Source: Planctomycetota bacterium | GTDB taxonomy: Bacteria; Planctomycetota; UBA1135; UBA2386 | NCBI GenBank assembly: GCA_965223545.1 | Contig: OZ245006.1 | Coordinates: forward strand, 2,688,001-2,752,000 | DNA length: 64,000 nucleotides | Reading direction: 5' to 3' | Part shown: in pieces, positions 2 to 46,313 of the stretch | How the letters are laid out: every line of letters begins with the position of its first letter | Numbering within the stretch: position 1 is the stretch's first letter | Program-made: the position numbers and the translations under genes | The notes under the pieces: generated by a model | What the model saw: the letters and a program-made list of their open reading frames with translations, nothing else | Databases searched by the model: none | What the model was told of the DNA's origin: nothing

Positions 2-961
2 GCCGTTGCGGCGCAGCACATCTCCTACCCGCAAGAGACTCTCCAGTACCGCCTCGGCAACCTCCTGCCGTTGGGCTCCGGCGGAGGAGGCGCCGGCAGC
101 CAGGTCGAGGAAGGCCGCTGGCACCAGCTGATCCCCGCCGACCACTTGCCGACCCGGCCCGGGCCGATCCGCGGCCTGTCGGTCGTCATCGGCGGCCTGT
201 TCGGTGCCGAGCACGCGATCCCGTACGCCTCCTTGCGGATCAGTCTGGCACACACCAACCGGACGACGCTGAGCACCGCGTTCGCGCAGAACCTCAACAG
301 CCCGGTCACGGTCGTCGATCGGACCGACACGGTCCTGACCTGGATCGAGCAACGCTGGAACCACCTGCCGTTCGACACCCCGTTCGACTACGACGGCAAG
401 AGCGGCCTGCTGATCGAGTTCCGCAAGGAGGTCGACGCCCGCTTCCGCGGCTCTTCGTCGGCCGCGAACCAGCCGGGCAACCCCGGCAGGCCGGATCTGC
501 CCGCCGCGGTCTACTCGTTCGGCCCCGCCGGCTCGGGCGCGGCCGGCGCAGCCAATGCCGCGGTGATCGGCGCTCCGCTGCAGCTTCGCCTGCACGTCGA
601 GTCGCCGACCCTCGTGCTGCTGAGCGATCCGGTGCCGGCGTTGTTCGGCCACGTGTTCGCGTTGGCACAGAGCTTCGACGCCACGGTCACCGCCGCCGCC
701 GGCAGCCGCTACTGCACCTGGGTGGGCGCCGGTTTCGGCCCGCGTTTCTCATGGCCGGGCGCCAGCGGCGAGGGCGTCGTCCAACCCCTCGCGGTCATCT
801 CGGTCGGCGCGATCGGCGGCGAGGGCAGCGCGACGGCCAGCGTGCCGATCCCCGCCGATCCCAACCTCGTCGGCGGTCTCCTCGCCGTGCAGGCCGGCGT
901 GCTCGGTACCAACGGACAGCTCTCGTTCACCAACGCGGCCGACTTCGTCATCAACAGCTGA
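2..961 (+). CDS. Secreted hypothetical protein with shared C-terminal module (5' end outside window)
   Basis: The frame is open from base 2 (AVAAQHISYPQE..., the end of a signal peptide). It ends in ASVPIPADPNLVGGLLAVQAGVL...SFTNAADF, similar to the C-termini of other secreted proteins here. Confidence 0.75.
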   Translation, partial: AVAAQHISYPQETLQYRLGNLLPLGSGGGGAGSQVEEGRWHQLIPADHLPTRPGPIRGLSVVIGGLFGAEHAIPYASLRISLAHTNRTTLSTAFAQNLNSPVTVVDRTDTVLTWIEQRWNHLPFDTPFDYDGKSGLLIEFRKEVDARFRGSSSAANQPGNPGRPDLPAAVYSFGPAGSGAAGAANAAVIGAPLQLRLHVESPTLVLLSDPVPALFGHVFALAQSFDATVTAAAGSRYCTWVGAGFGPRFSWPGASGEGVVQPLAVISVGAIGGEGSATASVPIPADPNLVGGLLAVQAGVLGTNGQLSFTNAADFVINS

Positions 962-1021
962 CTGGACCGGTCGCGGGCGCACCGCTCGGTCTCTTCGATC
1001 CTGCTAAGATCGACCGCCGCG

Positions 1022-4000
1022 ATGCCGCTGTCCGACTTCCACCCCGCTGTCCGCCGCTGGTTCTCCGAGCAGCTCGGCACGCCGACCGAACCGCAGGCGC
1101 GCGGCTGGAGTGCGATCCGCGCCGGTGACCACACGCTGATCGCCGCACCGACCGGCTCGGGTAAGACGCTCGCGGCGTTTCTGTGCGCGATCGACGGCCT
1201 CGTCCGGCAGGGCACGGCGCTGCCGGATGCAACGCAGGTGCTGTACGTGTCGCCGCTCAAAGCGCTCGGCAACGACGTGCAGAAGAACCTGACGACACCG
1301 CTCGAGCAGATCGCCGCGCTCGACCCAGCGGTCCCCGACATCCGCGTCACCGTGCGCAGCGGCGACACGCCACAGGCGGATCGCGCGCGCATGCTGCGCC
1401 GCCCCCCAAACATCTTGGTGACGACGCCCGAGTCGCTGTACATCCTGCTCACCAGCGATGGTGGCCGCGCGATGCTGTCGTCGGTGCGCACGGTGATCGT
1501 CGACGAGATCCACGCCGTGCTCGGCGACAAGCGGGGCGCGCACCTCGCGTTGTCGCTCGAGCGATTGGCGGCGTTGTGCGGCGACGTGCAGCGCATCGGC
1601 CTGTCCGCGACGCAGAAGCCCCTCAGCGAGGTCGGCCAGTTTCTCGTCGGCACCGGGCGCCAGTGCAACACGGTCGACGCCGGCCACCTGCGCACGCTCG
1701 ACCTCGCGGTCGAAGTGCCGGGCTCCGAGCTGTCGGCGGTTTGCTCGCACGAGGTCTGGGACGAGATCTACGACCGCGTCGTCGAGCTGGTGGAAGCGCA
1801 CCGCACGACGCTGGTGTTCGTCAACACGCGCAAGCTCGCCGAGCGCGTCGCCGCCCGGCTCACCGACCGGCTCGGCGCCGAAGCCGTCACCAGCCACCAC
1901 GGCAGCTTGGCGCGCGACCGTCGGCTGCTGGCCGAGCAACGCCTGAAGAACGGCGAACTCAAGGCACTGGTGGCGACCGCCTCTCTCGAGCTGGGCATCG
2001 ACATCGGCGACGTCGACCTGGTGGTGCAGATCGGCGTGACCCCGTCGATCGCGGCTTTCCTGCAGCGCGTGGGCCGGGCCGGCCACGGCGTCGGCCGCGT
2101 GCCGATCGGCCGCATCTTTCCGTTGACGATGGACGAGCTGGTCTGTGCGACCGCCGTGCTGCGCAGCGTGCGCCGCGGCGAGCTCGACCGCACGCCCCAA
2201 CCGGCAGCGCCGCTCGACATCCTGGCGCAACAAGTCGTCGCCGCCTGCGTGGCCGAGACCTGGGAGGCCGACGCGCTGTTCGAGCGGATGCGGCGCGCAT
2301 GGCCGTATCGAGAGCTCGAGCGGAGCGACTTCGACGCGGTGATCGCACTGCACGCCGATGGTCGGCAGTCGCTGCTGCACGTCGACGGAGTCGGGGGGCG
2401 ACTGCGCGCGACAAGGAGAGCGCGGATTCCGGCGATGACGGCCGGCGGTGCCATCCCGGACACCGCCGACTACCAAGTGGTACTGCAGCCCGAGGGGCAG
2501 GTGGTCGGCACGCTGCACGAAGACTTCGCCATCGAGTCCAACGTCGGTGACATCTTCCAGCTCGGCAACACGTCGTGGCGCATCCTGCGGGTCGAGCCCG
2601 GCACCGTGCGCGTCGCCAACGCCGAGGGCCTGCCGCCAACCCTGCCGTTTTGGATCGCCGAGGGCCCGGCGCGCACGCGCGAGCTGTCGGCGTCGGTGGC
2701 CACTGTGCGCGAAGATCCGGCGGGGTCCGCCGCAGCCGCGGAACTCGGCACGGCCGCCGCCGACCAGTTGCAGCACTACATCGACGCCGGCCGCGCGGCG
2801 CTGGGCACGGTGCCGACGCAGCAGCGCATCGTGCTCGAGCGCTTCTTCGACGAAGCCGACGGCATGCAGATCGTCGTGCATGCGCCGTTTGGTGGGCGCA
2901 TCAATCGCGCCTTCGGCCTGGCGCTGCGCAAACGGTTCTGCCGCCACTTCGGTTTCGAGCTGCAGGCGGCGGCCAACGAGGAGGCGTTTCTTCTGTCGCT
3001 GGGTCCCCAGCAGAGCTTCCCGCTGGCGGAGATCGTCACCTATCTTCACCCCGACACCGCGCGCGCCGTGCTCAGCCAGGCGCTGCTGGCGGCGCCGATG
3101 TTCCAGACGCGGTGGCGCTGGAACGTGACGCGCTCGCTGTTGGTCAGCCGCACGCGCGGCGGCAAGCGCGTGCCGGCCCCGCTGCTTCGCTTCCGCGCCG
3201 ACGACGCGCTGGCGGCGGCCTTCCCGCAAGCGACTGCTTGTCCGGAAAACCTGCCCCCCGGCGACACGCCGATCCCGCTCGACAACCCCATCGTGCGGCA
3301 GACCGTCGAAGACTGTCTGCACGAGGCGATGGACGTCGACGGGCTGCTGCAGGTCCTGCAAGGCCTGCGCAGCGGAGCGATCGAGGTCGTCGCCATCGAC
3401 CGCCCGGAGCCGTCACCGTTCGCCGAGGGTATCCTCAACGCGCAGCCCTACGCGTTCCTCGACGACGCGCCCCTCGAGGAGCGGCGCAGCCAAGCCGTGC
3501 TCAACCGGCGCGCGTTCGTGCCGGAGAAGGTGCAGAAGAGCGGGCCGTTGGATCCCGAGGTCGTGCGGCGCGTGCGCGAGGAGGCCTGGCCGGCGCCGCG
3601 CGACGCCGAGGAGCTGCACGAGGCACTGCTGTGGATGGGATACGCCCGCGACGACGAGTGCGCCGACTGGCGGGTGTGGCTCACGGCGCTGGCGGCGGCC
3701 GGCCGGGTCGTGCGCGACGGCGACCGCTGGTTCGCGGCGGAGGTCGATCGCGGCGACGCGCTCGGTCTGCTGCGCGGTCGACTCGAAGCGCTCGGGCCGA
3801 TCCACTCCGACGACCCGCTCCTGCTCACCCTGGAGGCCGAAGGCGTCGCGGTGCGCTGCGCGGTCGACGGCGCGCCGGCTTGGTGCAACCGGCGGCTGCT
3901 GGCGCGCATCCACCGCTACACCGTCGAGCGGCTGCGCCAGGAGATCGCGCCGGTGGCGCCCGCTCAGCTGCTGCGCTTTCTCGCATGCTGGCAGCACGCC

Positions 4001-4873
4001 GACCCAGAGCACCGGCTCGAGGGTCCGGCCGGCGTCGAGCAGGTGCTCCGCCAGCTGGCGGGTCTCGACGCACCCGCGTGGGCATGGGAGCCCATGGTGC
4101 TGAAGGCCCGCGTGCGCGACTACAAGAAGGAATGGCTGGACGAGCTGACGCTGTCCGGCCAGTTCGCCTGGGGCAGGCTGTGGGGCAACGGCGCGTGCGC
4201 GGTACGCAGCGCGCCGCTCAGCGTCGTGCCGCGCGAGGATCTCGGGGCATGGCTCGCACTCGCGCGCGGCGAGCGACCGGAGCTCGGCGCCGACGCGGCC
4301 ATCGTGCACGAGACTCTCGCGGCGCGCGGTGCGATGTTCACCCTCGAGCTGCAGATGGCGACGCAGCTGCTGCCGAGTCGACTCGACGACGCGCTGGGCG
4401 AGCTGGTCGCGCGCGGCTGTGCCACCAGCGACGCGTTCTCCGCCCTGCGACAGCTCACCGTCCCGGCAAGTCGGCGCCGGCGCCGCGTGACGGCGTCGGG
4501 ACGGTGGAGCTTGCTCGACCCGACCGCGCACGATCCGCCGGACGTGGACTTCATCGCCGACCGGTTGCTCGCGCGCTACGGGGTGTTGTTCCGGGCTCTG
4601 CTCCAACGGGAGCGCATCCCCGTGCCATGGCGCACGCTCCTGCGTGAGCTACGGCACCGAGAACTCGCCGGCCGCATCCGCGGCGGCCGGTTCGTCACCG
4701 GTTTCGACGGCGAGCAGTTCGCGCTGCCGGAGGCAGTGCGGCTGTTGCGCGCACAGCGCAAGCGGTCGGCGCCGCCGTTGCAGGTGGCGGCCGCCGACCC
4801 GCTCAACTTGAGTGGCATCGTGACGCCAGAAGAACGGGTGTCTCCGCTGACCCACCGCACGGTCGCGGTGTAG
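1022..4873 (+). CDS. lhr: Lhr-family ATP-dependent SF2 helicase, long form with C-terminal winged-helix region
   Basis: APTGSGKT, YVSPLKAL, TTPESL, DEIH, GLSAT, HHGSL, LELGIDIG and QRVGRAGH motifs. The C-terminal RGGRFV.GF.GEQFALPEA is typical of long Lhr. Confidence 0.93.
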   Translation: MPLSDFHPAVRRWFSEQLGTPTEPQARGWSAIRAGDHTLIAAPTGSGKTLAAFLCAIDGLVRQGTALPDATQVLYVSPLKALGNDVQKNLTTPLEQIAALDPAVPDIRVTVRSGDTPQADRARMLRRPPNILVTTPESLYILLTSDGGRAMLSSVRTVIVDEIHAVLGDKRGAHLALSLERLAALCGDVQRIGLSATQKPLSEVGQFLVGTGRQCNTVDAGHLRTLDLAVEVPGSELSAVCSHEVWDEIYDRVVELVEAHRTTLVFVNTRKLAERVAARLTDRLGAEAVTSHHGSLARDRRLLAEQRLKNGELKALVATASLELGIDIGDVDLVVQIGVTPSIAAFLQRVGRAGHGVGRVPIGRIFPLTMDELVCATAVLRSVRRGELDRTPQPAAPLDILAQQVVAACVAETWEADALFERMRRAWPYRELERSDFDAVIALHADGRQSLLHVDGVGGRLRATRRARIPAMTAGGAIPDTADYQVVLQPEGQVVGTLHEDFAIESNVGDIFQLGNTSWRILRVEPGTVRVANAEGLPPTLPFWIAEGPARTRELSASVATVREDPAGSAAAAELGTAAADQLQHYIDAGRAALGTVPTQQRIVLERFFDEADGMQIVVHAPFGGRINRAFGLALRKRFCRHFGFELQAAANEEAFLLSLGPQQSFPLAEIVTYLHPDTARAVLSQALLAAPMFQTRWRWNVTRSLLVSRTRGGKRVPAPLLRFRADDALAAAFPQATACPENLPPGDTPIPLDNPIVRQTVEDCLHEAMDVDGLLQVLQGLRSGAIEVVAIDRPEPSPFAEGILNAQPYAFLDDAPLEERRSQAVLNRRAFVPEKVQKSGPLDPEVVRRVREEAWPAPRDAEELHEALLWMGYARDDECADWRVWLTALAAAGRVVRDGDRWFAAEVDRGDALGLLRGRLEALGPIHSDDPLLLTLEAEGVAVRCAVDGAPAWCNRRLLARIHRYTVERLRQEIAPVAPAQLLRFLACWQHADPEHRLEGPAGVEQVLRQLAGLDAPAWAWEPMVLKARVRDYKKEWLDELTLSGQFAWGRLWGNGACAVRSAPLSVVPREDLGAWLALARGERPELGADAAIVHETLAARGAMFTLELQMATQLLPSRLDDALGELVARGCATSDAFSALRQLTVPASRRRRRVTASGRWSLLDPTAHDPPDVDFIADRLLARYGVLFRALLQRERIPVPWRTLLRELRHRELAGRIRGGRFVTGFDGEQFALPEAVRLLRAQRKRSAPPLQVAAADPLNLSGIVTPEERVSPLTHRTVAV

Positions 4874-4971: not shown

Positions 4972-6627
4972 ATGCGGCCGCGCGCACCTGCGTTGAAACC
5001 CCTGGCGATCTTGACCCTCGGCACCGCGCTCACCGCGCAGGGCTACCCCCTGTGGACGAGCACGTCGCCCGCGTTGCCCGTCCATCCCAGCGCGGGCACC
5101 GGCGACATCGACGGCGATGGAGTCCGCGATCTGCTCCGCGGCCCGGTGCCATTGAGCGGCGGCCCGATCGAAGTCGTCTCCGGCCGCGACGGCATCGTGC
5201 TCCGGACCCTCGCGGCTCCCGCGGGGAGCGCCGCGTTCGGTTACGCGCTTGCCCCGTTTCCCGACGCCGACGGAGACGGGGTAGCGGACATTCTGGCCGG
5301 TGATCTTCGCGCGACCGTTCCCGGGACCGGGTTGGGCAGCGTGCTCGTCGTCTCCTCGGCGACGGGCATGGTGCTCGAGCGCGTCTCTGCACCGGCCGGC
5401 GCGCAGGAATTCGGCATCGTCGTCGCTGCCGTGAGCGACCTCGACGCGGACGGGACGGCCGACATCCTGGCCGCGGCGACGACTCCGTCACAGGTCGTCA
5501 TCGCCTCCGGGCGCACCGGCCTGCCGCTGCGCACGCTCGCCGGTACCGGCCCGTTCGATGGCTATGGCGCGAGCGTGCTCGACGCCGGAGACGTCGACGG
5601 CGACGGTGTCGCGGAGATCGCGATCGGAGTCACCGAGCCCGGCAACTCGCTCGACCCACCGTTCGTGCCGACCGGCACCGGCTACGTCGAGCTCCGCTCC
5701 GGCGCCACGGGAGGCCTGCTGTGGGTCAGCCGCGGTGCCGCGGTGCGCGACGCGTTCGGCAGCGCGCTCGCGCGCGTGCACGACGTCGACGGCGATGGGC
5801 TGCCCGACTTGCTCGCCGGCGCCCCGCAACGCTACCCCTGCTCCGACATGACCTGCTACTCCGGCGCCGGCTATGCCTCGGTTCTGTCGGCGCGGACGGG
5901 CGCGGTACTGCTCACGGTGAACGGCACCGGCACCGCCGCGCAGTTCGGCGCATCGGTCACCGCGATGCCCGACGTGGATGGCGACGATGTCGATGATTTC
6001 GCGGTCGGCGCACCGGGCGACGACAACTATTTCTACGTTCCGTTTCCCGGTGTAGTGCACGTGTTCTCCGGCGCAGACGGAACCGGAATCGCGAATGCCG
6101 GCACGGCGCCCGATCTGTTCGCCGGCAGGGACGTGATCGCGCTCGGCGATGCCGACGGCGACGGCGTGCCGGATGTCGCCAGCGGTCCGCGGCTCGATGC
6201 GCGTTCGCTGGTGGGCATCGCGAACGGCGATCTGCGCGTGGGCACCGCGTGTGCGGGCGCGGGTGGACGCGCGCCCACGCTCGCGACCTACGGTGGGACC
6301 ATCGATGCGAGCGGCAACGCGCGCTTTGGCTTCGCGGTCTCGCAGGGCCGCGCCAATGCCCCCACGGCGCTGCTGCTCGGCACCGCGACCAACCCCGCCG
6401 GAGTGTCGTTCGGCGGCTGCAGGGTGCACGCCGGCGGCACCATCGTCGCCGCCGTGCCCGCGGCGACCCTGAGCAGCAACGGCCATCGGTTCCTGCCCAC
6501 GCCGGTTCCGGTGCTGCCGCCGGCGACGGCGGGATCGACGCTCACGTGGCAGGGCTTGGTGCTGGATGCGGCCAGCCCGAACGGACTCTTCAGCGTGACC
6601 GAGGCGGTGGTGACGACCGTGCGCTGA
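4972..6627 (+). CDS. FG-GAP / integrin-alpha repeat secreted protein with shared C-terminal module
   Basis: GGAG upstream of ATG 4972. Signal peptide ends ...ALTA|Q. Repeated DxDGDGxxD and FG...GAP motifs. Confidence 0.85.
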   Translation: MRPRAPALKPLAILTLGTALTAQGYPLWTSTSPALPVHPSAGTGDIDGDGVRDLLRGPVPLSGGPIEVVSGRDGIVLRTLAAPAGSAAFGYALAPFPDADGDGVADILAGDLRATVPGTGLGSVLVVSSATGMVLERVSAPAGAQEFGIVVAAVSDLDADGTADILAAATTPSQVVIASGRTGLPLRTLAGTGPFDGYGASVLDAGDVDGDGVAEIAIGVTEPGNSLDPPFVPTGTGYVELRSGATGGLLWVSRGAAVRDAFGSALARVHDVDGDGLPDLLAGAPQRYPCSDMTCYSGAGYASVLSARTGAVLLTVNGTGTAAQFGASVTAMPDVDGDDVDDFAVGAPGDDNYFYVPFPGVVHVFSGADGTGIANAGTAPDLFAGRDVIALGDADGDGVPDVASGPRLDARSLVGIANGDLRVGTACAGAGGRAPTLATYGGTIDASGNARFGFAVSQGRANAPTALLLGTATNPAGVSFGGCRVHAGGTIVAAVPAATLSSNGHRFLPTPVPVLPPATAGSTLTWQGLVLDAASPNGLFSVTEAVVTTVR

Positions 6628-7180: not shown

Positions 7181-7181
7181 C

Positions 7182-31019: not shown

Positions 31020-32087
31020 TCACTGCGCGAGGGTCACGCGCACCGGGTTGCTGGCAAACACCGCCATCGACCCCGACAGCACGACGTAGGCGTGGTCGAT
31101 GTTCAAGCCGACGAGCGCCGGGATGGCGAGGGGCGGCAACGAGAACGCCGCTGAGGCCAGGCCGATCGCGTCGAGGTTGCCGAACGACGCCGTCAACGGC
31201 GGCGTGTTCGGCGCGCTGACCGTTTGGGAAGTGTAGCCGTCGGGGTTGAGCGGCACCGTCACCGCGCCGACGGTGAAGCCGGGAGACGTGCCACTGATCG
31301 AGCCGGCGACGACGTACACCGCGCCGCCATGCGTCGTCCCCGCCGACAGCCTCAGCCCCTGCGTGCCGCCGGTGGCGAGCGAGATGCTGTCGGTGTCACT
31401 CGAGAACGGCACGTCGTCCGCGACGAGCGTGCCGTTGAGCGTGAGCGATCCGCTGCTGCCGGTGGCCGGGTCGGCGAACGAGAACGTGGTCGCGACCGGC
31501 ACCGACAGCCGGATGCCACCGGGCGTCGGCACGAACGTCCCGTTGACCGGCTGCGGCGCGCTCTGCTGGCCGCCGAGCGAGACGGTCTGGACCGAGCCCA
31601 GGGCGTTGATGTTGGCCGTTCCCGCCAACATGGTGGCGACCATCGACGTGCTGAAGGCGCCACCCGCACCGATCGCGAAGGACGCCGGCGCGAGGGTGGC
31701 GGGATCGACCGAGGCGAAGGCCACGCGCGCGCCGCTCACCGTGATCGTCGCCAGCGGCGGCAGGAACGGAAACGGGTTGGGCACGCTGGCCGACAGCGTC
31801 GGCACCACGACCTCCGAGCCGCCGTCGACGAGCTGACCCGTGGTCAGCGCCCCCGCCGCCGCGGTCAGCACCGCGTCGGCTTCGCCCGAGACGTTGAAGG
31901 TCGAGGGGTTGCCGACCAGCGGTCCGGACACGCCTTGATAGGTGACCGATCCCGAGAACGAGAACGAGGACTGCGCCTGGTCGACGACGAACAGGTGCTG
32001 GCCCTGCGCGGTGAGCGGAGAGACGAGGAGCGCGGCGGCGAAGAGTGCCTTCCGCGAGACGATGCAGGTGGTGTTCGCGCTGGTCAT
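31020..32087 (-). CDS. Secreted beta-rich hypothetical protein with shared C-terminal module
   Basis: Signal peptide LTA|Q with GAGG RBS. Ends GLASAAFSLPP..IPALVG....AYVV....ASNPVRVTL. Confidence 0.78.
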   Translation of the reverse strand: MTSANTTCIVSRKALFAAALLVSPLTAQGQHLFVVDQAQSSFSFSGSVTYQGVSGPLVGNPSTFNVSGEADAVLTAAAGALTTGQLVDGGSEVVVPTLSASVPNPFPFLPPLATITVSGARVAFASVDPATLAPASFAIGAGGAFSTSMVATMLAGTANINALGSVQTVSLGGQQSAPQPVNGTFVPTPGGIRLSVPVATTFSFADPATGSSGSLTLNGTLVADDVPFSSDTDSISLATGGTQGLRLSAGTTHGGAVYVVAGSISGTSPGFTVGAVTVPLNPDGYTSQTVSAPNTPPLTASFGNLDAIGLASAAFSLPPLAIPALVGLNIDHAYVVLSGSMAVFASNPVRVTLAQ

Positions 32088-35064: not shown

Positions 35065-37661
35065 CGCGATTCCTGGCTGAACTGAGCGAGCAGTGCGCTG
35101 CACTGCTCGCGCTGCGCGCTGTCCCGCGGCGATCGATCGATCTCCGCCCGCAGCACGCGGTCGATCTCGCCGCGGGCCCAATCGGCGTCGTGCGCGTTCT
35201 GCAAGAGCTCCACGCCGCACATCCCGGCCTTGACCCAGTCGGTGCCGGCGCGCACCTCGGCCTCGAAGCGGGCCAGCAGCGGCGCCGGCGCGCCCGGCTG
35301 CAGCCGATACCACGCGTCCGCGCTCTGCGACAACGCCTGCAAGTCCGCGGTGACCAGCGCCACCCGCGCGCGCAGCTCCGCACCGGTCGGGCTGTCGCGC
35401 GGCGGATCGAGCTCGGCCAACCGCGTCGCCAGCGCGTCGACGAACGGCGGCCGCGAGTCCAGCTGCATCAACACGCGCAGCAGGTCGAGCCACCCGCGCA
35501 GCTGCACGTCTTGGCCGGCGCCGCGGGCGACGCGCAGCGTCGCCACCGAGAACGCGTTGCTCTGCACCTCGAACACCGTCCGCCAGCTCTGCAACGGCGA
35601 GCGCGGGTGTACGTCTTGCTGGATCGAGCTCATCCGCTCGCGCAGCGCGGCGGCCTGCTGCACGGCGTCGCCGAACGTCATGTCCTGCGCGAGGCCGGCC
35701 AGCTCGGCCTCGAAGCCACTCCAGTGTCCGGTGGCGGGCGCCGGCAGCTCGTCGGGCAGCATGGCGCTCGACCGGAGGTGCAGCTCGCGGCGCACCACGT
35801 AGCTCATCTCGAAGTGCACCAGGTTGCTGCCCGGCCACGGCTGCAACCCGGCGACCGCGCGCAGCAGCACGCCGGCGACCTCGCGCGCGCGCGGCGGCCC
35901 GCCGGCGACGATCGGCTCGAGATCGGCCATCAGCGGGTCCACGCCAGTGACCGGATCCCAGTCGATGATGGCGATCAGCAGCTTGGGGAAGAACGCCGCG
36001 GACCGCACCAGCTCGGCGGCCGACAGGTCGCGGCGCGCCTGGTCGACGTCGCCCACCGCGCGCATCAGGCCGGCGACCGCGCGCCCCACGTAGAGGCGGT
36101 AGAGCCGCAACCACGTGGCGTCGTCGGGCGCCAGGCCGGCGCGCGCCGCCGCGATCGCCGGGTCGTACAGCTGCATGGCGCGATACGCGCGGCCGGTGCG
36201 CAGCAGCTGGGTCGCCGCCGGCAGCGGGTCCGACTCGTAGGCCTCGCGCAGGGTCGAGGTGACCGTGGCCCCGTGGTCGAGCAGCGCGGCCTGCTGTAGG
36301 TGCACCAGCACTTCGTCCGGTCCGACCGGCGAGACGACCTCGACGCCGACCAACCCGGAGAGCAACCCCGGCGGCCCGGCTGCGGGACCCGGCTGCCGCG
36401 CCGCGGCGCTGACCGCGGCCTGCAGGTGGTTGTCGAACAAGAGCGCGTCGCTGCCGCTGCGCACGCGCTGGTTGGCCAAGACCAGACCGAGTGAGAGCAG
36501 GCCGAGAACGCCCGCCACCGCCACCGTCGCCCACAGGTCCGGCCGCTTCTTCACCAAACGCCAGCAGCGCACCCACCACGGCTGCCGGCGGATGCGCACC
36601 GGCTCGCCTTCGGCGACGCGCCGCAGGTCGCGCGCCAGCTCCTCGCCATCCGCGTAGCGATCGCTCGGGTCCTTCTGCAGCAGCTTGTCGACCACCGCCT
36701 CGAGGTCGCGCGGCGCGCGTGGCACGACTTCGCGCAGGCGCTTGGGCCGCCCGTTGAGCAGGGCGTCGAGCATCGACTCGGTGTTGCCGCCGCGCAGCGG
36801 CAGCTCACCGGCGACCGCTTCGAACAGCGTCACGCCCAGCGAGTACAGATCGCCGGACGGAGCCGGCGCGTCGCCCCGAGCCTGCTCGGGCGGGGCGTAC
36901 GCGAGCGTGCCGAGGAAGGCGCCGCCCGCGGTCAGGCTGTGCGACTGCTCGCCGAGCATCTTCGACAGGCCGAAGTCGACCAGCGCGAGAGCGCCGTCGG
37001 GCCCGACCAGCAGATTGCCGGGCTTGACGTCGCGGTGCAGGATCCGGCGCCGGTGTGCGTGGTCGAGCGCCTCGGCGACGCCGGCGAAGCGCGCCGCCGC
37101 CTCGCGCGGCTCGATCCAGCCATCGCCCCGGCGACGGGCCGCCGCGATGTGCTTGTCCAGGCTGACGCCGTGGACCTTCTCCATCGTGAAGAACAGCACG
37201 CCCGAGGTCTCGCCGAAGTCGTAGATCGGCACGATGTGCGCGTGGTGCAAGGACGCCGTGGCGCGCGCCTCGGAGCGAAAGCGCGCGCGCATCGTCGGGT
37301 CGGCGGCGTAGACCGGTGAGAGGACCTTGAGCGCCACCTCGCGCTCCAGCGACTCCTGGAACGCCTCGTACACGGTGCCCATGCCGCCGCGCCCGAGCAG
37401 GCCGCGAATCCGATAGTCACCGAGACGCTCGGGGATGTCGCTGGTCTCGCCGACCAACGAGTCGATGAAGTCGAGCGCGTTGAGGCGGCCGAGCAAGTCC
37501 TCGGCCTCGCCGGTCCGCTCCCCCGCCAACGTCTCGCGCAGCGCCCGGCGCGGCCCCTTCTTGCGGCGCAGGATCTCGGCCATGCGCTCGTCGGCACTGT
37601 CGGCGCCGCCGGCCTCCCGCCGGGCGCCGTCCTCGTGCTCTTCGATCGACGGGCCGTCCAC
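35061..37661 (-). CDS. Transmembrane Ser/Thr protein kinase
   Basis: LGRGGMGTVY, VALK, HRDVKPGN, DFGL and GTLAYAPPE motifs. TM followed by a helical extracytoplasmic domain. Confidence 0.93.
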   Translation of the reverse strand: MDGPSIEEHEDGARREAGGADSADERMAEILRRKKGPRRALRETLAGERTGEAEDLLGRLNALDFIDSLVGETSDIPERLGDYRIRGLLGRGGMGTVYEAFQESLEREVALKVLSPVYAADPTMRARFRSEARATASLHHAHIVPIYDFGETSGVLFFTMEKVHGVSLDKHIAAARRRGDGWIEPREAAARFAGVAEALDHAHRRRILHRDVKPGNLLVGPDGALALVDFGLSKMLGEQSHSLTAGGAFLGTLAYAPPEQARGDAPAPSGDLYSLGVTLFEAVAGELPLRGGNTESMLDALLNGRPKRLREVVPRAPRDLEAVVDKLLQKDPSDRYADGEELARDLRRVAEGEPVRIRRQPWWVRCWRLVKKRPDLWATVAVAGVLGLLSLGLVLANQRVRSGSDALLFDNHLQAAVSAAARQPGPAAGPPGLLSGLVGVEVVSPVGPDEVLVHLQQAALLDHGATVTSTLREAYESDPLPAATQLLRTGRAYRAMQLYDPAIAAARAGLAPDDATWLRLYRLYVGRAVAGLMRAVGDVDQARRDLSAAELVRSAAFFPKLLIAIIDWDPVTGVDPLMADLEPIVAGGPPRAREVAGVLLRAVAGLQPWPGSNLVHFEMSYVVRRELHLRSSAMLPDELPAPATGHWSGFEAELAGLAQDMTFGDAVQQAAALRERMSSIQQDVHPRSPLQSWRTVFEVQSNAFSVATLRVARGAGQDVQLRGWLDLLRVLMQLDSRPPFVDALATRLAELDPPRDSPTGAELRARVALVTADLQALSQSADAWYRLQPGAPAPLLARFEAEVRAGTDWVKAGMCGVELLQNAHDADWARGEIDRVLRAEIDRSPRDSAQREQCSALLAQFSQESR

Positions 37662-37667
37662 GGGGCG

Positions 37668-38812: not shown

Positions 38813-39664
38813 GTGAACTGTGCGCGATGGATCCTGCTCGGCCTGGTCTGCACGGGCTTCGCCGCCTGCAACTCCGACAAGGTGAGCTGGGAGTTCGTCT
38901 CCAGCCCCTCGGGCGGGAGTGCGGGCGGAAGTGCGGGTGGGAGCGCGGTGACCGGCGGCGCGGTGGTGCGCATCACGCAGCAGAGCGCCGGCACGTACAC
39001 CGCCTCGGCCGGCACGCTGATTGCGTCCGGCCTCCGCGGCGGCACCGCCGTCCGCGTCCACCTGGCGACGGAGTGCGACGCCGCGTGGATCGAAGCGCCA
39101 GCGCACGACGAGGTGCTGAGCCCGTCGCTGCCCGGCGGCGCGGTGCGCCTCACCGATGCCGTGGTCACCGCGCCGGGGCGCGGCGCGGCGGTGTGGGACG
39201 TGCGCCTCGCCGACGCACGGCAGGTGCACGCCAACGCGATCGGCAACGGCCGCCTGGTCGTCGCCGCGCGCGGCAACGTCGTCGCGCTCGAACACGGTGG
39301 CGGCATCGCCGTGTTCGAGATGAGCGGCGCGCAGTGGTTGCCCGCGGGCGCCAGCCTCGACCTGAGCGGCACGCACCTCGCCGTCGCCCGCGCCGGCGGC
39401 ACAGCCCAACCGCTGCCCGGCACACCAACGCCGACCGCGGCGCAGCGCCTGCGCCACAACAGCCAGCGCAACTCGGTGCGCATTCTCGGCCCGCGCGGCG
39501 AGCCCCTCGCCGAGCTGCCGGCGGCCGGAGTGCAGCTGCGCGGCGGCGCCAACGGCGCGTTCTTACTGGGCAGCTTCCCCAGCGGCACCGCCGGCAGCAC
39601 GCGGCCGTTCGCGCTGCTGGCGGCGACCGACAACCGCTACCTGTTGCAGATGGTGCAGCAATGA
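38813..39664 (+). CDS. Hypothetical lipoprotein
   Basis: GTG start, lipobox FAA|C and GGSA linker. ATGA overlap with the next gene. Confidence 0.65.
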   Translation: MNCARWILLGLVCTGFAACNSDKVSWEFVSSPSGGSAGGSAGGSAVTGGAVVRITQQSAGTYTASAGTLIASGLRGGTAVRVHLATECDAAWIEAPAHDEVLSPSLPGGAVRLTDAVVTAPGRGAAVWDVRLADARQVHANAIGNGRLVVAARGNVVALEHGGGIAVFEMSGAQWLPAGASLDLSGTHLAVARAGGTAQPLPGTPTPTAAQRLRHNSQRNSVRILGPRGEPLAELPAAGVQLRGGANGAFLLGSFPSGTAGSTRPFALLAATDNRYLLQMVQQ

Positions 39665-40494
39665 CCGAGATGGAGCCGAACGCACCCTACGTGCACGGCT
39701 ACGGCGACGCGGAGATGCAGCGCCTGACGCGCATGCAAACGCTGGTCAACGACGCCGAGCTCGCGGTGCTCGACCTGACCGGCGTCCGCACCGTCCTCGA
39801 CGTCGGCGCCGGCCTCGGCCAGATGACCCGCGCCATCGCCCACCGGCTCGGCCCCGGCAGCCGCGTCCTCGGCATCGAGCGCGACCCCCGCCAGCGCGCC
39901 GAGGCAGAGCGCCAGGCAGCGGCCGCGGGCGAAGCCGATCTCGTCGAGCTGCGCGCCGGCGATGCCACGGCTCTGCCCCTGAGCGAGGCGGAGCGCGGCA
40001 GCTTCGACCTGGCGCACGCTCGCTTCGTGCTCGAGCACGTGCCGGATCCGGAGGCTGTCGTGTGCGAGATGGTCTCGGCGGTCAAGCCGGGTGGCAGGCT
40101 GGTGCTGATGGACGACGACCACGAGCTGCTGCGCCTGTGGCCCGAACCCGCCGCGGTGCAGCACGCGTGGGAGGTGTACTGGCGCAGCTACGCGCTGCAC
40201 GGCCACGACCCGCTGGTCGGCCGGCGGCTCGGCGCGCTGCTGACCGCCGCCGGTGCGCGGGTCACGCGCGTCACGACAGTGTTCTACGGCGCGTGCCACG
40301 GCATGCCGCAGTTCGATGCGGTGGTCGACAACCTCGCCGGCGTGCTGCGCGGTGCCGCGGGCGGCCTTGCCGAGACCGGGCAGCTGGAGGCGAGCGCGAT
40401 GGACACCGCGCTGGCCGAGCTGCAGGGTTGGCGCGCCGCGAACGACGCCACTGTCTGGTACTCCCTGCCGCTGGCCGAGGGTGTCCGGCGCTGA
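39661..40494 (+). CDS. Class I SAM-dependent methyltransferase
   Basis: YVHGY...E.QRL, VLDVGAGLG, GDAT.LP, FDLAHARFVLEH and KPGG motifs. Confidence 0.9.
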   Translation: MTEMEPNAPYVHGYGDAEMQRLTRMQTLVNDAELAVLDLTGVRTVLDVGAGLGQMTRAIAHRLGPGSRVLGIERDPRQRAEAERQAAAAGEADLVELRAGDATALPLSEAERGSFDLAHARFVLEHVPDPEAVVCEMVSAVKPGGRLVLMDDDHELLRLWPEPAAVQHAWEVYWRSYALHGHDPLVGRRLGALLTAAGARVTRVTTVFYGACHGMPQFDAVVDNLAGVLRGAAGGLAETGQLEASAMDTALAELQGWRAANDATVWYSLPLAEGVRR

Positions 40495-40531
40495 CGTTCG
40501 ATGCAGTGCTACGGCAAGGCGGGGAGAGCCC

Positions 40532-41899
40532 TCACTTGGCTCCCACCACCGCGTCGATGGCATTCGACGTGACGAACCCGAGCGCAAGCGCGGGGTCCGA
40601 GGCGTAGCCCTGCAGGAACATCGACCGACCGACCAGGCTTGGGAGGTTTGCCAGGGGAAGGCTCCACTGGGTGTTGCCCCGCGCATCCGCGCGCCCTGCG
40701 AATGCGAGATCCACGGAAGCGAGCACCTGGCAGGTGCTCGGCGAGAGGGTCAACGGCAGCGTCGCCCCGAGCCATTGGGTCCGGGACACTCCGGCGGTGA
40801 GCGCGACGAATGTGCCGGGGATCGCGCCGCTCAATTGGAGCGTGGCGGGGAATCCGATCCATGGCAGAGAGGTCGCGGTCAGCGCGGGGACTCCCGACGA
40901 GCCGGGACACGGGGAGCCGTAGGGATTGGTGGTCGCCGGCGCGACGGGGCCGTAAGACCAGAGTTCCAACGCCGAGTAAGGCGTGTAAGGACCGGCCAGG
41001 AAGGTCATTGAACGCCGACGGCGGACATCGTACGCAATAGACGGTCCGAAAGGAGCATAGGCGAAAGGAACCTGCGCAGACCTCAGTCGCCAATCGGTGC
41101 CGCCCCACTCCCACGTGTCAGACGACGTTCGGGAATAGTAATAAAACCCACCAAACAATACCACTACCTCTCTGGCGGCGTCCCAAGTCATTGACGTAAT
41201 CCGAGGAGCTGGCGCATTTGATGGAACTGCCTGAATCCAGACCAAGCCATCGTATAGCCATGTGTCGCCAAGATGGCCACTCGAATGCCCCCCAAAGAGC
41301 ACAATACGTCTCCGCACCGGGTCGTAGGCCATCGCTGCGAATGCTCTTGGGCTCGGAGAAACGGGCGTGACCACTTGGATCCAGTTCACCCCGTCCCATT
41401 CCCAAGTATCGCCAAGGATCACCTGTCGCCCCGGAGATCCCGAACGCCGCATTCCACCAAACATGACGACCCGATCTCGCGCAGAATCGTAGGCCATTGC
41501 CGCCCCCTCCCGAGCAGGTCCTGAGACGGCCAACTGACGCCAAGCCACTCCATCCCACGACCAAGTATCGGCAAGCGTCATGCCTGCAGTTGCCCCTCCA
41601 AACAAAAGGATGTCTCTCGCAGAGCCTCGATAACAGTATGCCTGGTTGACTCGACGTCCAGGAGACAAAGGTGGGCTCTGCTTCATCCAGGCCGAACCCT
41701 GGAAGGTCCACGTCTGATCGGAATTCTGCCCCGCACCGTAGAGAAACAGCTGGTCGACCGCATCGTGGTAGACAAGCTGAGGCGGCCAATACGGCGAAGA
41801 CGAAGTCGGAATGACCGTCCAAGAAGTCGACTGCGCGGGAGCGACGGCACTGAGCAGACCGATCACGAGCAAACGACGACCGGCGGTGAGAGCCCTCAC
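40532..41899 (-). CDS. Kelch-like six-bladed beta-propeller secreted protein with shared C-terminal module (paralog 1)
   Basis: GTG start overlaps the stop of paralog 2. Signal peptide VAPA|Q. Repeats of AMAYD..R.R.V.FGG...DTWEWDG..W. Confidence 0.85.
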   Translation of the reverse strand: MRALTAGRRLLVIGLLSAVAPAQSTSWTVIPTSSSPYWPPQLVYHDAVDQLFLYGAGQNSDQTWTFQGSAWMKQSPPLSPGRRVNQAYCYRGSARDILLFGGATAGMTLADTWSWDGVAWRQLAVSGPAREGAAMAYDSARDRVVMFGGMRRSGSPGRQVILGDTWEWDGVNWIQVVTPVSPSPRAFAAMAYDPVRRRIVLFGGHSSGHLGDTWLYDGLVWIQAVPSNAPAPRITSMTWDAAREVVVLFGGFYYYSRTSSDTWEWGGTDWRLRSAQVPFAYAPFGPSIAYDVRRRRSMTFLAGPYTPYSALELWSYGPVAPATTNPYGSPCPGSSGVPALTATSLPWIGFPATLQLSGAIPGTFVALTAGVSRTQWLGATLPLTLSPSTCQVLASVDLAFAGRADARGNTQWSLPLANLPSLVGRSMFLQGYASDPALALGFVTSNAIDAVVGAK

Positions 41900-43271
41900 T
41901 TCGCTCCCACCACCGCGTCGATCGCGTTCGACGTGGCGAACCCGAGCGCGAGCGCGGGGTCCGAGGCGTAGCCCTGCAGGAACATCGACCGACCGACCAG
42001 GCTTGGGAGGTTTGCCAGGGGAAGGCTCCACTGGGTGTTGCCCTGCGCATCCGCGCGCCCCGCGAATGCGAGTTCCACGGAGGCGAGCACCTGGCACGTG
42101 CTCGGCAAGAGAGTCAATGGGAGAGTCGCCCCGAGCCATTGGGTCCGGGACATTCCGGCGGTGAGCGCGACGATGGTGCCGGGGATCGCGCCGCTCAACT
42201 GGAACGTGGCGGGGAATCCGATCCATGGCAGAGAGGTCGCGATCAGCGCGGGGGTTCCTGAGGGGCGAGGGCACGCGGGGCCGTAGGGACTGGTCGTCGC
42301 CGGCGAAAGGGGGCCGTAAGACCAAAGCTCCGCCGACGTGTATGGTGTGTAGGGACCGCCCAAGAAAGTCATCGTCCGCCTACGACGGCTATCGTACGCG
42401 ATCGTGGGTACGAAAGGTTCATAGAGTGGTATTTGCGCGATCTTTAGTCTCCAATCGGTGCCGTCCCACTCCCACGTGTCAGACGACTTTCGAGAATAGT
42501 CATAATACCCGCCAAACAATACCACTACCTCTCTGGCGGCGTCCCAAGTCATCGACGTAATCCGAGGGGCTGGCGCATTTGACGGAGCTGCCTGCGTCCA
42601 CGCCGACCCATCGTATAACCACGTTTCGCCAAGTGGGCGAGTCGAGTAGCCTCCAAAGAGCACGATGCGTCTCCGCACCGGATCAAAAGTCATCGCAGCA
42701 GACATCCTCGGACTTGGAGCGACCGGCGTTGCGATCTGCACCCAGTTCACGCCATTCCATTCCCATGTGTCGCCAAGCAATCCCCCGCCCCCTGACGAGC
42801 CCTGAAGACGTCGACCTCCGAATATGACGACTCGATCGCGCACAGAGTCGTAGGCCATTGCCATGTACTCCCGCGCAGGCCCCCCCACCGCCAACGGGCG
42901 CCAAGCCACCCCATTCCACGACCACGTATCCCCAAGCGTCACGCTCGCTGTGAAGCCGCCGAACAAGAGGATGTCTTTGGCGGCACTCCGGTAACAATAT
43001 GATTGACCGACCCGGCGACCAGGGGACAAAGAGGGGTTCTGATTTGTCCAGGTGGACCCCTGAAGCGTCCAGGTTTCGTCAAAATTCTGACCCGCACCGA
43101 ACATGAAGAGCCGGTCGACCGAATCGTGATACGCGAGCTGGCTCTGCCACACTGGCGAAGTTGGGGACACCAACGTCCAGGAGCTCGATTGCGCGGAAAC
43201 GGTCGAACTCAACAGGCCGACAACGAGCAAACGACGACACCAACCAAGCGAAAGTGCTTCGGGACTGGTGT
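41896..43271 (-). pseudogene. Kelch-like paralog 2, 5' end split by IS (original start 44933; first 16 codons at 44886-44933)
   Basis: Removing the IS and one target copy gives the in-frame MRWLAARAHRWGEDTSPEALSLGWCRRLLVVGLLSSTVSA|Q. The remainder of the ORF is intact. Confidence 0.82.
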
Positions 43272-44885
43272 GGGTGTGGCTCCGGCATTGAGCGGAGCAG
43301 CGTGATCGCACCCGAGATCTGGTGGTCGCAGGCTGGCTCGCCGCAAGTATTTGTGTAGAAGACACTTGTACAAGCATGCGCCCCTCCCTATCGGATACAG
43401 GATGCAACACCAGCGTCCTGGGAGGGGCGCTTCACGAGGGTACGTCCTCGTGAAGGTGCCAGTTGAGCACAAGGGGCTCGCCGAGTCGATGCAGAGCCTG
43501 GTCGACGCAACGGTGGCGGCGGCGGTGTCGAGCCGCGGCGGTCACGCGGTGGACTACGCGGACACGGAGAGGGCGATCGCCAAGCAGACCGCCGCGGTCG
43601 AGCGGGCAGCGCACGCGGAGGTGCTTCGCGCCCTCGACGTCGACGCGCCACGGATCCGGGTCCGAGGCGCTCTCTACGCCAGTTTCCGGCGCACGCCGGG
43701 CACGTACTTCACGATGGCGGGCGAGGTCAAAGTCGAGCGCACCGTCTATCGCCAAGTCGGCGTGCGCAACGGACCGATCCTCGACCCGATCAAGCTGCGA
43801 ACCGGTGCCTACGGCCGCGGTTGGCTTCCTCTCACCGCCCAGTGCATGGCGAACGACATTCAGCGCGGCCCGTCGCGCGATGCGGCGGATGCTGCCCGCC
43901 AGACAGGTCGGTTTCCCTATTCGCGGGCCAGCTTCGAGCGCGTCGCGCACCATGTCGGCGAGCACTGGCTTCGCGAACACGCGGACATCGAGGACATGCT
44001 CACGCAGGAGTTCGACGTGCCAGCGGAAGCCGTCGCCATGAGCGTGGCAGTCGACCGCGTGTCCGTGCCGATGGAAGAGGCCGCGAAGCGTCGGGCGGGC
44101 CGACCGCGCAAGGACGCGCCAAAGCGGCCCGTAGACCGGAACTTCCGGATGGCCTACTGCGCAACGATCACTTTGCACGACGCCGAAGGGGCGAGCCTGC
44201 ACACGCTCCGGTACGGGTGCATGCCGGAAAGCGACGTCGACCTGTGGTTCGCTCAGATCGCCGGCGAGGCGTACAGGCTGTTGCAGAAGAGCCCGGACCT
44301 GCGAGTGAAGCTGCTGTCCGACGGTGCCCACGAGATGTGCAACCTGCTCCACACTCACTTCCCCGCCGCGGTGTTCGGCAACGTCGAGCAAGGCATCGAC
44401 TTCTGGCACGTGGTCGAGAAGCTGGCGCCGGCCGCCGAGGTGATCTTCGGTGCAGACGGCGCCAAGTCGGAGTTGCACCGTTGGCGCGTTCGATTGCGCT
44501 GCGCGAACAGCGCAGCCGAAGAGATCCGCGCCGAACTGCGCGGTTCCGGCCTCGAGGATACTTGGCGGGACTCGAAGCGGCCCGTCCATGAGGCCATCAC
44601 CTATTTCGAAAACCACGCCGAGCGCATGCGGTTCGCCAGATCGCTGCGCCTTGGTCTGCCAATTGGCAGCGGAGCTGTCGAGGCCACCTGCAAGACACTC
44701 GTGGCCGTGCGTATGAAACGCGCCGGATCGCGCTGGAAGTCGACGACCGGCGAACACGTCCTCCGCCTGCGTGCTCTGCCGCTCAGCGACCGTTGGGATC
44801 AAGCGATGCACAAGCTCCACGAAACCCGACGTACCGCCGTGAAGGTGGCCGCATGATCGAGTTGCTCAATAGCGGATCCACACCC
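43272..44885 (+). mobile_element. Complete ISKra4-family-like insertion sequence, 1614 bp
   Basis: TIRs GGGTGTGGCTCCGGCATTGAGC (43272-43293) and the reverse complement of 44864-44885, GGGTGTGGATCCGCTATTGAGC (19/22 match). 8-bp direct repeat ACTGGTGT at 43264-43271 and 44886-44893. Confidence 0.92.
43402..44856 (+). CDS. ISKra4-family (UPF0236-like) DDE transposase
   Basis: LSDGA, IDFWHVVEKL, YFENH..RM.F and PIGSGAVEATCK.LV..RMKRAGSRW motifs. Start uncertain. Confidence 0.88.
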   Translation: MQHQRPGRGASRGYVLVKVPVEHKGLAESMQSLVDATVAAAVSSRGGHAVDYADTERAIAKQTAAVERAAHAEVLRALDVDAPRIRVRGALYASFRRTPGTYFTMAGEVKVERTVYRQVGVRNGPILDPIKLRTGAYGRGWLPLTAQCMANDIQRGPSRDAADAARQTGRFPYSRASFERVAHHVGEHWLREHADIEDMLTQEFDVPAEAVAMSVAVDRVSVPMEEAAKRRAGRPRKDAPKRPVDRNFRMAYCATITLHDAEGASLHTLRYGCMPESDVDLWFAQIAGEAYRLLQKSPDLRVKLLSDGAHEMCNLLHTHFPAAVFGNVEQGIDFWHVVEKLAPAAEVIFGADGAKSELHRWRVRLRCANSAAEEIRAELRGSGLEDTWRDSKRPVHEAITYFENHAERMRFARSLRLGLPIGSGAVEATCKTLVAVRMKRAGSRWKSTTGEHVLRLRALPLSDRWDQAMHKLHETRRTAVKVAA

Positions 44886-44933
44886 ACTGGTGTCCTCCCC
44901 CCAACGGTGGGCCCTTGCGGCAAGCCACCGCAT

Positions 44934-46313
44934 TCACTTCGCTCCCACCACCGCGTCGATCGCGTTCGACGTGACGAACCCGAGCGCGAGCGCGGGGTCC
45001 GCGGCGTAGCCCTGCAGGAACATCGAGCGCCCGACCAGGGCGGGGAGGTTCGCCAGGGGAAGGCTCCACTGGGTGTTGCCCTGCGCATCCGCGCGCCCCG
45101 CGAACGCGAGGTCCACAGACGCGAGCACTTGGCAGGCACTCGGCGAGAGAGTCAACGGCAGAGTCGCACCGAGCCACTGAGTCTGGGACACGCCCGCAGT
45201 CATCGCGACGACTGTGCCGGGCATCGCGCCGCGCAGATCGCACGTGACCGGGAAGCCGACCCAGGGCAGGGAGGTCGCGGTCAGAGCAGGGGATCCCGAC
45301 GAGCCAGAGCACGGCAACCCATAGGGAGTCGCGCTCGCTGGAGAGATGGGGCCGTACGACCAAAGTTCGCCCGGCCCCCAGGTGGGCGTGCTGGGGCCGG
45401 CCAGGAGGGCCCTCGAGCGCCGCCGGCGCCGATCGTAGCTGAGCGAGGGGAGCGCCGGAGTGTGGCCGTTGAGGCCCTGCACGGTCCTCGACTTCCAATC
45501 GGAGCCATCCCATTCCCAGGTATCAGCTACGACCTTGAAGTAGCCATAGAACCCGCCGAACAAGACAACGACCTTGCGCGCGTCGTCCCAAGTCATCGAC
45601 GTGGCCCGAGGAAACGGAGCATTCGACGGAGACGCCTGCGTCCACACCGACCCGTCATACAACCACGTGTCGCCATAGCAGCGATGCAGGTATCCCCCGA
45701 ACAGGACGATGCGCTTCCGCTCCGCGTCATAGGCCATTGCCGCGCCCAGCCTCGGACTGGGAGCCACCGGGGTCACGATCTGGACCCAGCTGACTCCGTC
45801 CCACTCCCACGTATCGCCAAGAAACCCCGGTCCCCCTGGCGACCCCGCGGTCCGCACCCCGCCGAAGACGACGATCCGATCCCGCCCGGAGTCGTAAGCC
45901 ATCGCCATGAACGATCGGGCAGGGCCACCCACCGACAACGGCCGCCACGCCAGGCCGTCCCACGACCAGGTGTCTGCGAGGGTCACGCCCGACGCGCTGC
46001 CGCCGAACAAGACGACTTCCTTCGTGGCACTCCGATAGCAAGCCCCATGCCCCACCCGCATCCCGAGGGCCAAGGGAGCACTCTGCTTGGTCCAAGTAGC
46101 CCCCCGAAAGGTCCAGGTCTCGTCCGCGTTCAAGCCCGCACCATGCATGACCAGTTGGTCGGCAAACTCATGGTACGCGAACTGGGCGGGGGAGATCGGC
46201 GGAGACGACGACGCCAACCTCGTCCAGGAGACGGATTGCGCGGGGACGACGGCACCGACCGCGCCTACGGCGAGCAAGAAACTGCGCGAGTGGTTCGAAC
46301 CTGGCGGGAGCAT
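44934..46313 (-). CDS. Kelch-like beta-propeller secreted protein with shared C-terminal module (paralog 3)
   Basis: Signal peptide VVPA|Q. Same repeats and near-identical C-terminal domain as paralogs 1 and 2. Confidence 0.85.
   Translation of the reverse strand: MLPPGSNHSRSFLLAVGAVGAVVPAQSVSWTRLASSSPPISPAQFAYHEFADQLVMHGAGLNADETWTFRGATWTKQSAPLALGMRVGHGACYRSATKEVVLFGGSASGVTLADTWSWDGLAWRPLSVGGPARSFMAMAYDSGRDRIVVFGGVRTAGSPGGPGFLGDTWEWDGVSWVQIVTPVAPSPRLGAAMAYDAERKRIVLFGGYLHRCYGDTWLYDGSVWTQASPSNAPFPRATSMTWDDARKVVVLFGGFYGYFKVVADTWEWDGSDWKSRTVQGLNGHTPALPSLSYDRRRRRSRALLAGPSTPTWGPGELWSYGPISPASATPYGLPCSGSSGSPALTATSLPWVGFPVTCDLRGAMPGTVVAMTAGVSQTQWLGATLPLTLSPSACQVLASVDLAFAGRADAQGNTQWSLPLANLPALVGRSMFLQGYAADPALALGFVTSNAIDAVVGAK

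Follow-up and report, generated by a model that had tools for sequence, protein, structure and literature searches.

A domain of about 135 residues, found at the ends of hundreds of exported proteins in a planctomycete genome, may be an uncleaved, non-covalent docking or anchoring handle that holds these proteins on the cell envelope, a reading to which we give about an even chance on the sequence evidence assembled here. The domain was traced from a 64,000-nt stretch of DNA, hereafter the window, which covers positions 2688001–2752000 of contig C1 of the genome (G000; 8.1 Mb in two contigs, approximately 71% GC), whose ESM Atlas neighbours and named homologues belong to Planctomycetota. A preliminary description of the window had reported a common C-terminal module on six unrelated secreted proteins and had suggested that it acts as an export or surface-attachment signal. 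All six open reading frames (ORFs) and their quoted tails were present, and profile searches confirmed, at the level of sequence, that the six tails are copies of one domain family. The six genes are as follows, where A and B are subtypes of the domain and the leave-out E-values refer to a profile described below.

2..961, plus strand: exported protein with an unannotated N-terminal domain and a subtype-A domain (~488-958) without the Cys pair; leave-out E-value 1.3e-10
4972..6627, plus strand: FG-GAP beta-propeller protein with a signal peptide and a subtype-A domain (~6226-6624) with the Cys pair; leave-out E-value 2.1e-15
31020..32087, minus strand: exported protein with an unannotated N-terminal domain and a subtype-B domain (~31023-31406), with His in place of Gln and a helix in the flap
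40532..41899, minus strand: Kelch propeller paralogue 1, with a subtype-A domain (~40541-40963), the copy used for folding; start approximate (GTG overlapping the upstream stop)
41896..43254, minus strand: Kelch propeller paralogue 2 (start codon uncertain), with a subtype-A domain (~41905-42327)
44934..46313, minus strand: Kelch propeller paralogue 3, with a subtype-A domain (~44943-45365)

In these proteins, the FG-GAP and Kelch cargo alone is named by Pfam. The three Kelch genes represent one recent expansion, and because their tails are 81–87% identical, the window offers four independent cases rather than six; the shared tail of the preliminary description therefore stands, whereas the independence of all six proteins does not. 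Sec signal peptides had been assigned to all six, but the gene at 2–961, and with it the signal peptide, starts 44 bases ahead of the window (M at -43), and the start of the Kelch gene at 41896 is uncertain. The two cysteines ascribed to four of the proteins are indeed both present in the FG-GAP protein and the three Kelch proteins.

Starting from the six tails, an iterative profile search of the 53,442 six-frame ORFs of G000 (final model, 137 columns) converged on 354–355 ORFs at E < 1e-3, with one domain each. The stop codon lay within 15 residues of the match in 317 of 355 ORFs, and no reversed ORF matched at E < 1e-3 (best E-value, 0.25). Pairwise similarity among the four independent window tails was marginal (best E-values, 1e-4 to 0.27), but a leave-out profile, for which the window proteins and near paralogues were removed and 345 genome copies kept, recovered the five Gln-type tails at E-values of 7e-27 to 1.3e-10. 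The 31020 tail had an E-value of 0.89 on the leave-out A profile and of 1.3e-32 on a subtype-B profile built without it, so the His noted in place of Gln in that protein is the mark of a sister subtype. Subtype B, seeded by this tail, comprised 29 ORFs, all terminal and eight of them in common with A, and the A and B profiles aligned with a probability of 87.6 and an E-value of 3.5e-6. A relaxed search of gene ends added 46 ORFs at E < 1e-3, with no reversed matches, and the resulting relaxed carrier set, which includes a few doubtful rows, amounted to 430 of the 5,642 genes called with a purpose-built codon model (7.6% of the genome), the high copy number that had been predicted. The conserved positions are Gly16, Cys19, Gly37, Pro65-Leu66, Cys72, Gly92, Pro101, Leu106, Gly108, Gln114 (94%), and Ser/Thr129, with a mean column identity of 25% across the alignment. 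The motif first quoted for the tails, in a loosened form, occurs in five of the six window tails and in none of the 5,212 other genes, yet in only 13 of the 430 carriers, and the module is longer than the motif. In a library clustered at 50% identity, 33,007 representatives matched at E ≤ 0.001; among the best 150 of them, 148 were terminal and none had two copies. The domain was also found in a genome with a GC content of 59%.

The tails of the window proteins had no match in Pfam or NCBIfam, and those of 73 further carriers had none in Pfam at 1e-6, as anticipated. PDB sequences gave one chance-level match (E-value, 0.045), and the ESM Atlas neighbours of the tail were unnamed Planctomycetota clusters, named clusters scoring only 0.78. 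No description of the domain was found in the openly accessible literature that was searched, and it is not mentioned in the accessible parts of 10.64898/2026.10.26.761892, 10.1101/817700, PMC12078418, or PMC6461901.

Both subtypes were predicted by AlphaFold2 to form a beta-sandwich (pLDDT 97 for A, 92 for B); the strands follow one another in the same order, and B has a helix in its long loop. This agrees with the shared fold expected of the tails. Foldseek with the domain model returned no match at E ≤ 0.001, and its weak rows comprised SoxY, macroglobulin domains, neocarzinostatin-type apoproteins, Der f 2, and ester-bond adhesin domains. The best VIA-align matches (Z 8.7 for A and 8.8 for B) were generic Ig-like domains, and the PorU terminal domain stood at rank 34, one of a large number of tied generic rows (Z 7.3, rmsd 3.0, 94 residues aligned). 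The predicted structure is thus an Ig-like sandwich whose flap is pinned by a disulfide. Both cysteines were present in 191 copies, neither in 93, and a single one in 12, and in a coupling analysis of 568 sequences C19-C72 was by far the strongest pair, followed by pairs between strands F and G, Y15-L75, and C72-Q114. We infer that a C19-C72 disulfide pins the long flap over the C-F-G sheet and that Gln114 is a buried structural tie. The median hydropathy (GRAVY) of the domain was 0.49, whereas the 135 residues before it had a median of -0.07 and the tails of 444 other exported proteins one of -0.22; judging from the Ig topology, hydrophobic loop residues probably gather at its cargo-distal end. 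A Thr-Gln ester bond, considered because of the conserved Gln and Ser/Thr, was set aside, as the main coupling partners of Gln114 are positions in the flap and sheet and His takes its place in subtype B. By analogy with neocarzinostatin or Der f 2, a lipid pocket is a candidate lead. The homodimer prediction (score 0.03) spoke neither for nor against self-association of the domain.

The weak pairwise E-values might suggest that the tails resemble one another only through their composition, as Ala/Gly/Pro-rich proteins of a 71% GC genome. The empty reversed controls, the successful leave-out recovery, the confident predicted folds, the occurrence at 59% GC, and the abundance of library representatives contradict this explanation, whose probability we regard as negligible.

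The cargo attached to the domain is diverse: the cargo parts of 321 carriers fell into 140 clusters, 112 of which were singletons. Among the 73 carriers scanned, Pfam named FG-GAP, Kelch, CotH with LTD, LamG, GSDH, beta-lactamase fold, sulfatase, arylsulfotransferase (ASST), Spondin_N, and MauG, and many had no cargo family. A signal peptide followed by Gln, called by a heuristic, was found in 276 of 427 carriers versus 507 of 4,904 other genes, in keeping with the predicted co-occurrence. Gln in this position is a genome-wide feature of G000 (783 genes by the heuristic), not specific to carriers, and recalls the pyroglutamate 'Q-rule' of Bacteroidota. A lipobox was detected in only 4 of 280 signal-bearing carriers, versus 211 of 718 other signal-bearing genes, which suggests that carriers are almost never lipoproteins. 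The absence of a C-terminal transmembrane (TM) segment was also borne out, a TM-like window (KD19 > 2.0 in the last 45 residues) being present in 1 of 440 carriers.

The domain had been expected at the extreme C terminus throughout. This applied to most copies, the conserved Gln lying 17–32 residues from the stop codon in 315 of 353 aligned copies, but not to the other 38, which have at least 55 residues after it (55–72 in 24, 92–93 in 2, and at least 200 in 12). Some of the copies with at least 200 residues following sit immediately behind the signal peptide and precede a Kelch propeller or a hydrolase, and three proteins with N-terminal-type copies were found in G187, a 2.4-Mb genome of another order. 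In the 55–72 group, the domain looks as if it were inserted into a cargo domain whose last strand comes after it. At least eight proteins consist of a signal peptide and the domain alone (the regular-expression search for stand-alone copies gave ten matches, two of which were mis-started Kelch genes). No tandem copies were found in the 354 ORFs or the 150 representatives. The N-terminal, inserted, and stand-alone copies speak against a signal that is cleaved off as in type IX secretion (by the T9SS). Two Kelch proteins (L016 8550-14637; G000 C1:4934995-4942339) hold the domain internally, followed by a Gly-rich 545-residue region that elsewhere in G000 sits on large lipoproteins; in these two proteins, the domain may replace a lipid anchor and stalk.

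Matches were obtained in 30 of the 31 genomes of the family and order of G000. Of 301 Planctomycetota genomes, 61 had repeated matches (at least 6 of at most 14 scored), 5 had a single match, and 235 had none, which accords with the predicted lineage restriction; three single-match genomes remained single on deeper scoring. Among the families itemised, the distribution goes by whole families. Subtype B accompanied A in 23 of 23 domain-rich genomes versus 1 of 16 others, and G187 had 29 A and 12 B matches. On an RpoB fragment tree, in which one mistranslated reference row was ignored, the domain-rich genomes fell outside the clade of Planctomycetia, Phycisphaerae, and anammox references (SH-aLRT 95), and the deeper branches were unresolved.

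The sole negative genome of the order, G021 (91% complete, 4% contamination), lies inside the order clade on RpoB (99/97) and keeps the envelope genes of the lineage, and profile searches of it yielded no subtype-A and no subtype-B match. It contains 39 Dockerin_1 matches, whereas all 27 domain-rich genomes examined have 0–4 each, and the dockerin expansions (39, 34, 12, and 88 matches) occur in four genomes, all among the 26 domain-poor ones. Because a genome of the same order thus lacks the domain and has dockerin tails, the domain is likely to be a shared envelope handle. A corresponding exchange was seen in 120 orthologues of a protein encoded next to a TonB-dependent receptor, 75 of which had a tail of the domain family (subtype A 31, C 21, D 23), 26 a dockerin-like tail, 19 another tail or none, and none both; these counts come from kin that are not independent, with G021 as a single event. 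The 120 orthologues classified with the C and D profiles included the 10 and 11 sequences, respectively, that had served to build them, and the 26 dockerin-like tails were called by pattern, 10 of them by precomputed Pfam, with NF041540 over its cut-off in 1 of those scanned. The two copies of this TonB-receptor-linked protein in G021 end in dockerin-like repeats. In full-length alignments, subtypes C and D match A, also at both Cys, the Gln, and Ser-Asn-Gly, albeit weakly (E ~1e-3, probability 21–29), whereas in the hhalign control dockerin tails gave an E-value of 0.68 against subtype A. Eight homologues of the 31020 cargo have tails of subtype B (two), C (five), and D (one), all matched by the A profile. 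The dockerin tails of G021 (L158-L177) often end in W-N-G-x-x-L-x-x-C-P, after an unannotated domain.

The domain works like a dockerin or a T9SS C-terminal domain (CTD), yet belongs to neither family. Like type I (PF00404) and GC-type (NF041540) dockerins, it occurs once per protein, mostly at the C terminus, on a wide range of unrelated exported proteins; it occupies the same slot on orthologous cargo, and the two expansions are mutually exclusive by genome. Unlike dockerins, which consist of Ca-binding EF-hand-like repeats, it is predicted to be an all-beta sandwich with a disulfide, and subtype A has no sequence relation to them. PF00404 had no match in G000, where its control worked, and NF041540 was absent from the window proteins. 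The type A CTD of the Bacteroidota T9SS (Por_Secre_tail, PF18962/TIGR04183) is likewise an Ig-like sandwich that ends hundreds of Sec-exported proteins, and the two have similar cargo types and Gln after the signal peptide in common. However, the planctomycete domain has a disulfide flap in its ~135 residues, also occurs at N-terminal and internal positions, and is not always at the extreme C terminus, and neither PF18962 nor TIGR04183 matched the six window proteins. PEP-CTERM/exosortase, GlyGly-CTERM/rhombosortase, and MYXO-CTERM tags resemble it as lineage-restricted, high-copy C-terminal tags on diverse exported cargo, but consist of a short motif, a TM helix, and a basic tail, whereas the planctomycete tag is a folded domain without a TM helix.

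We also searched for export machinery or a partner of the domain. SprA and the C25 peptidase (PorU) were not found in the genome, which is 91% complete by markers, but the search controls failed too; the genome search with PF18962 was likewise empty, and its control also failed. PorV gave one weak match, to a TraF_2 barrel (E-value 9e-5, 24 bits against a cut-off of 90). G000 and G187 share an operon for a type II secretion system (T2SS; gspD-E-F-G and further pseudopilins), a PilMNOQ cluster, and ExbB/ExbD genes enclosed by a pair of secretins. In the last of these loci (C1:7078860-7090901, L188; G187 L026), exbB, two exbD genes, and two large unannotated genes lie between two large secretin genes, and the secretin pair is mostly ~10 kb apart in the genomes that match; it is possibly a proton-motor-linked secretin system, but was rejected as the machinery sought because it is phylum-wide (51 of 52 genomes). 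A second pseudopilin-like cluster (C1:1835390-1851773, L186; G187 L036), conserved between the two genomes, contains a PilM-like gene and a gene for a 1,737-residue protein without a Pfam match, and no secretin was seen in this stretch.

Candidates were drawn from 919 reciprocal best hits between G000 and G187, 276 of which had a hydrophobic N terminus and fewer than four TM helices (multi-pass proteins were left out); 89 of the 276, picked by eye, were scanned against Pfam, and five were profiled across genomes. The best lead, orfX (G000 C1:699861-701957), encodes a 698-residue protein with a signal peptide and no match in Pfam, NCBIfam, or PDB. Long single matches to it (E ≤ 3.6e-20, frames of 664–962 residues) were present in 26 of 26 domain-rich genomes and in G021, and matches in other genomes were weak and partial (4 of 25). 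Of the 16 genomes with both genes on one contig, 15 have orfX at a distance of 3.8–7.3 kb from gspE (in 10 further genomes the contigs were separate, and 1 had no gspE match). However, in G000 and G187 orfX faces the T2SS operon from the opposite strand, with serS between, so the linkage to gspE may be housekeeping synteny; and since a control lipoprotein family was similarly distributed (23 of 26 domain-rich genomes, plus G021, and 0 of 25 others), the profile of orfX marks the clade. We regard orfX as a lead to the machinery, not as a result. At this locus (C1:699861-704775, L187 10365-12458; G187 L115 11464-18120), the other neighbour of orfX, on the side away from serS, is a rhomboid-family protease gene, whose product scores 40.8 bits on the rhombosortase model TIGR03902 (cut-off, 84).

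We favour docking because of the single copy per protein, the exclusion of lipoproteins, the positional freedom, the stand-alone copies, the hydrophobicity, and the exchange with dockerin. Of the two functions in the preliminary suggestion, attachment gains from the dockerin swap and the lipoprotein exclusion, and an export signal of the T9SS or PEP-CTERM type becomes less favoured in view of the copies away from the C terminus or on their own, the lack of a TM helix, and, as a weak test, the searches that detected no T9SS gene. Carriers would be exported by Sec and fold in the periplasm, with the C19-C72 disulfide pinning the flap; the folded protein would then cross the outer membrane, most plausibly through the conserved T2SS, and the hydrophobic, cargo-distal end of the domain would bind an envelope partner (lipid or protein) in place of a lipid anchor. 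The domain would probably stay on the mature protein and play the role that dockerins are thought to have in other planctomycetes. Dockerin/cohesin modules in freshwater Phycisphaerales have been proposed to build a surface 'planctosome' (PMC6461901).

Several observations weigh against docking at the surface. The anchoring role of dockerin in planctomycetes is itself a hypothesis (PMC6461901); cohesin (PF00963) was not found in G021 or in G000, where the control worked, so that the dockerins there are also without an identified partner; 22 of the 26 domain-poor genomes have neither expansion (0–2 Dockerin_1 matches); and only one of eight recovered G021 dockerin proteins had a homologue in G000, although that homologue carries the domain. 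GspD and the T2SS also occur in domain-poor relatives (5 of 5), and orfX, an Ig-plus-propeller lipoprotein, and the Gly-rich lipoprotein domain were rejected as partners because all are kept in the domain-less G021. The location of carriers at the cell surface is inferred, and they could instead be periplasmic; the signal-peptide heuristic called 3 positives among 39 in a ribosomal and RNA-polymerase control region. Finally, placement at the C terminus in ~90% of cases (315/353 copies; 148/150 representatives) would also be expected of an export signal.

The main rival, a less probable though serious one, is a signal for export across the outer membrane, in which the folded tag is read by the T2SS, possibly with the product of orfX as an exported, lineage-specific accessory protein, and anchoring is secondary or absent. 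One copy per protein, the predominantly terminal position, cargo resembling that of the T9SS, the gsp genes conserved in G000 and G187, and the position of orfX beside gspE are as it would predict, but the orientation of orfX across serS, the similarly distributed control lipoprotein, and the retention of orfX and the T2SS in G021 without the domain detract from it, and the N-terminal, inserted, and stand-alone copies fit it poorly. Such a signal is also compatible with anchoring, and the two are not exclusive. We consider it unlikely that the domain is a self-assembling block of a coat or lattice in which each tile displays different cargo and the domain-only proteins serve as fillers: these proteins, the share of 7.6% of genes, the high hydrophobicity, and the joint occurrence of A and B would suit a lattice, but the mean column identity is low for a lattice interface, there is one copy per protein, and dockerin, its replacement in G021, is a docking module, not a lattice former. 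Marginally less likely still is a plain module for substrate binding or spacing, similar to CBM or FN3 domains, that was amplified in one lineage and has no sorting role. The generic Ig-like fold without a specific match and the flexible position speak for such a module, as do Leu106, Gly108, the aromatic residue at 112, and Ser/Thr-Asn, which we take to resemble structural Ig/FN3 features; against it stand the lack of tandem copies, the strong lipoprotein exclusion, the all-or-none distribution among the 301 genomes, and the either-or exchange with dockerin.

The window has further features. An ISKra4-like transposase gene (43351-44856, plus strand; NF033572, E-value 3e-48, below the cut-off) lies between two Kelch paralogues, in a stretch of lower GC content (63–65%). 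Long alternative-frame ORFs with near-identical beginnings and no family match overlap the Kelch genes on the minus strand (39637-40686 and 41118-42050) and are shadows of the duplicated Kelch tails. An Lhr-type helicase gene (1022-4873, plus strand) and a Ser/Thr kinase gene (35061-37661, minus strand) are ordinary neighbours without a link to the domain.

It is conceivable, though we hold it rather improbable, that early-branching Planctomycetota have a so far undescribed route of surface display, with a folded, disulfide-pinned Ig-like tag in four subtypes that is read by the T2SS together with a lineage-specific, exported, gsp-adjacent accessory protein and then retains approximately one-third of the exported proteins on the surface, uncleaved, with dockerin as an interchangeable alternative. 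Substrate selection in type II secretion is poorly understood, and if the T2SS does read the domain, it would be a rare example of a shared, transferable recognition domain for this pathway. The exchange with dockerin within one order ties the tag to the question of what role non-cellulosomal dockerins have in planctomycetes. As neither Pfam nor NCBIfam has a model for the domain, exported proteomes across several planctomycete orders now carry the annotation 'hypothetical', and the profile makes them recognisable.

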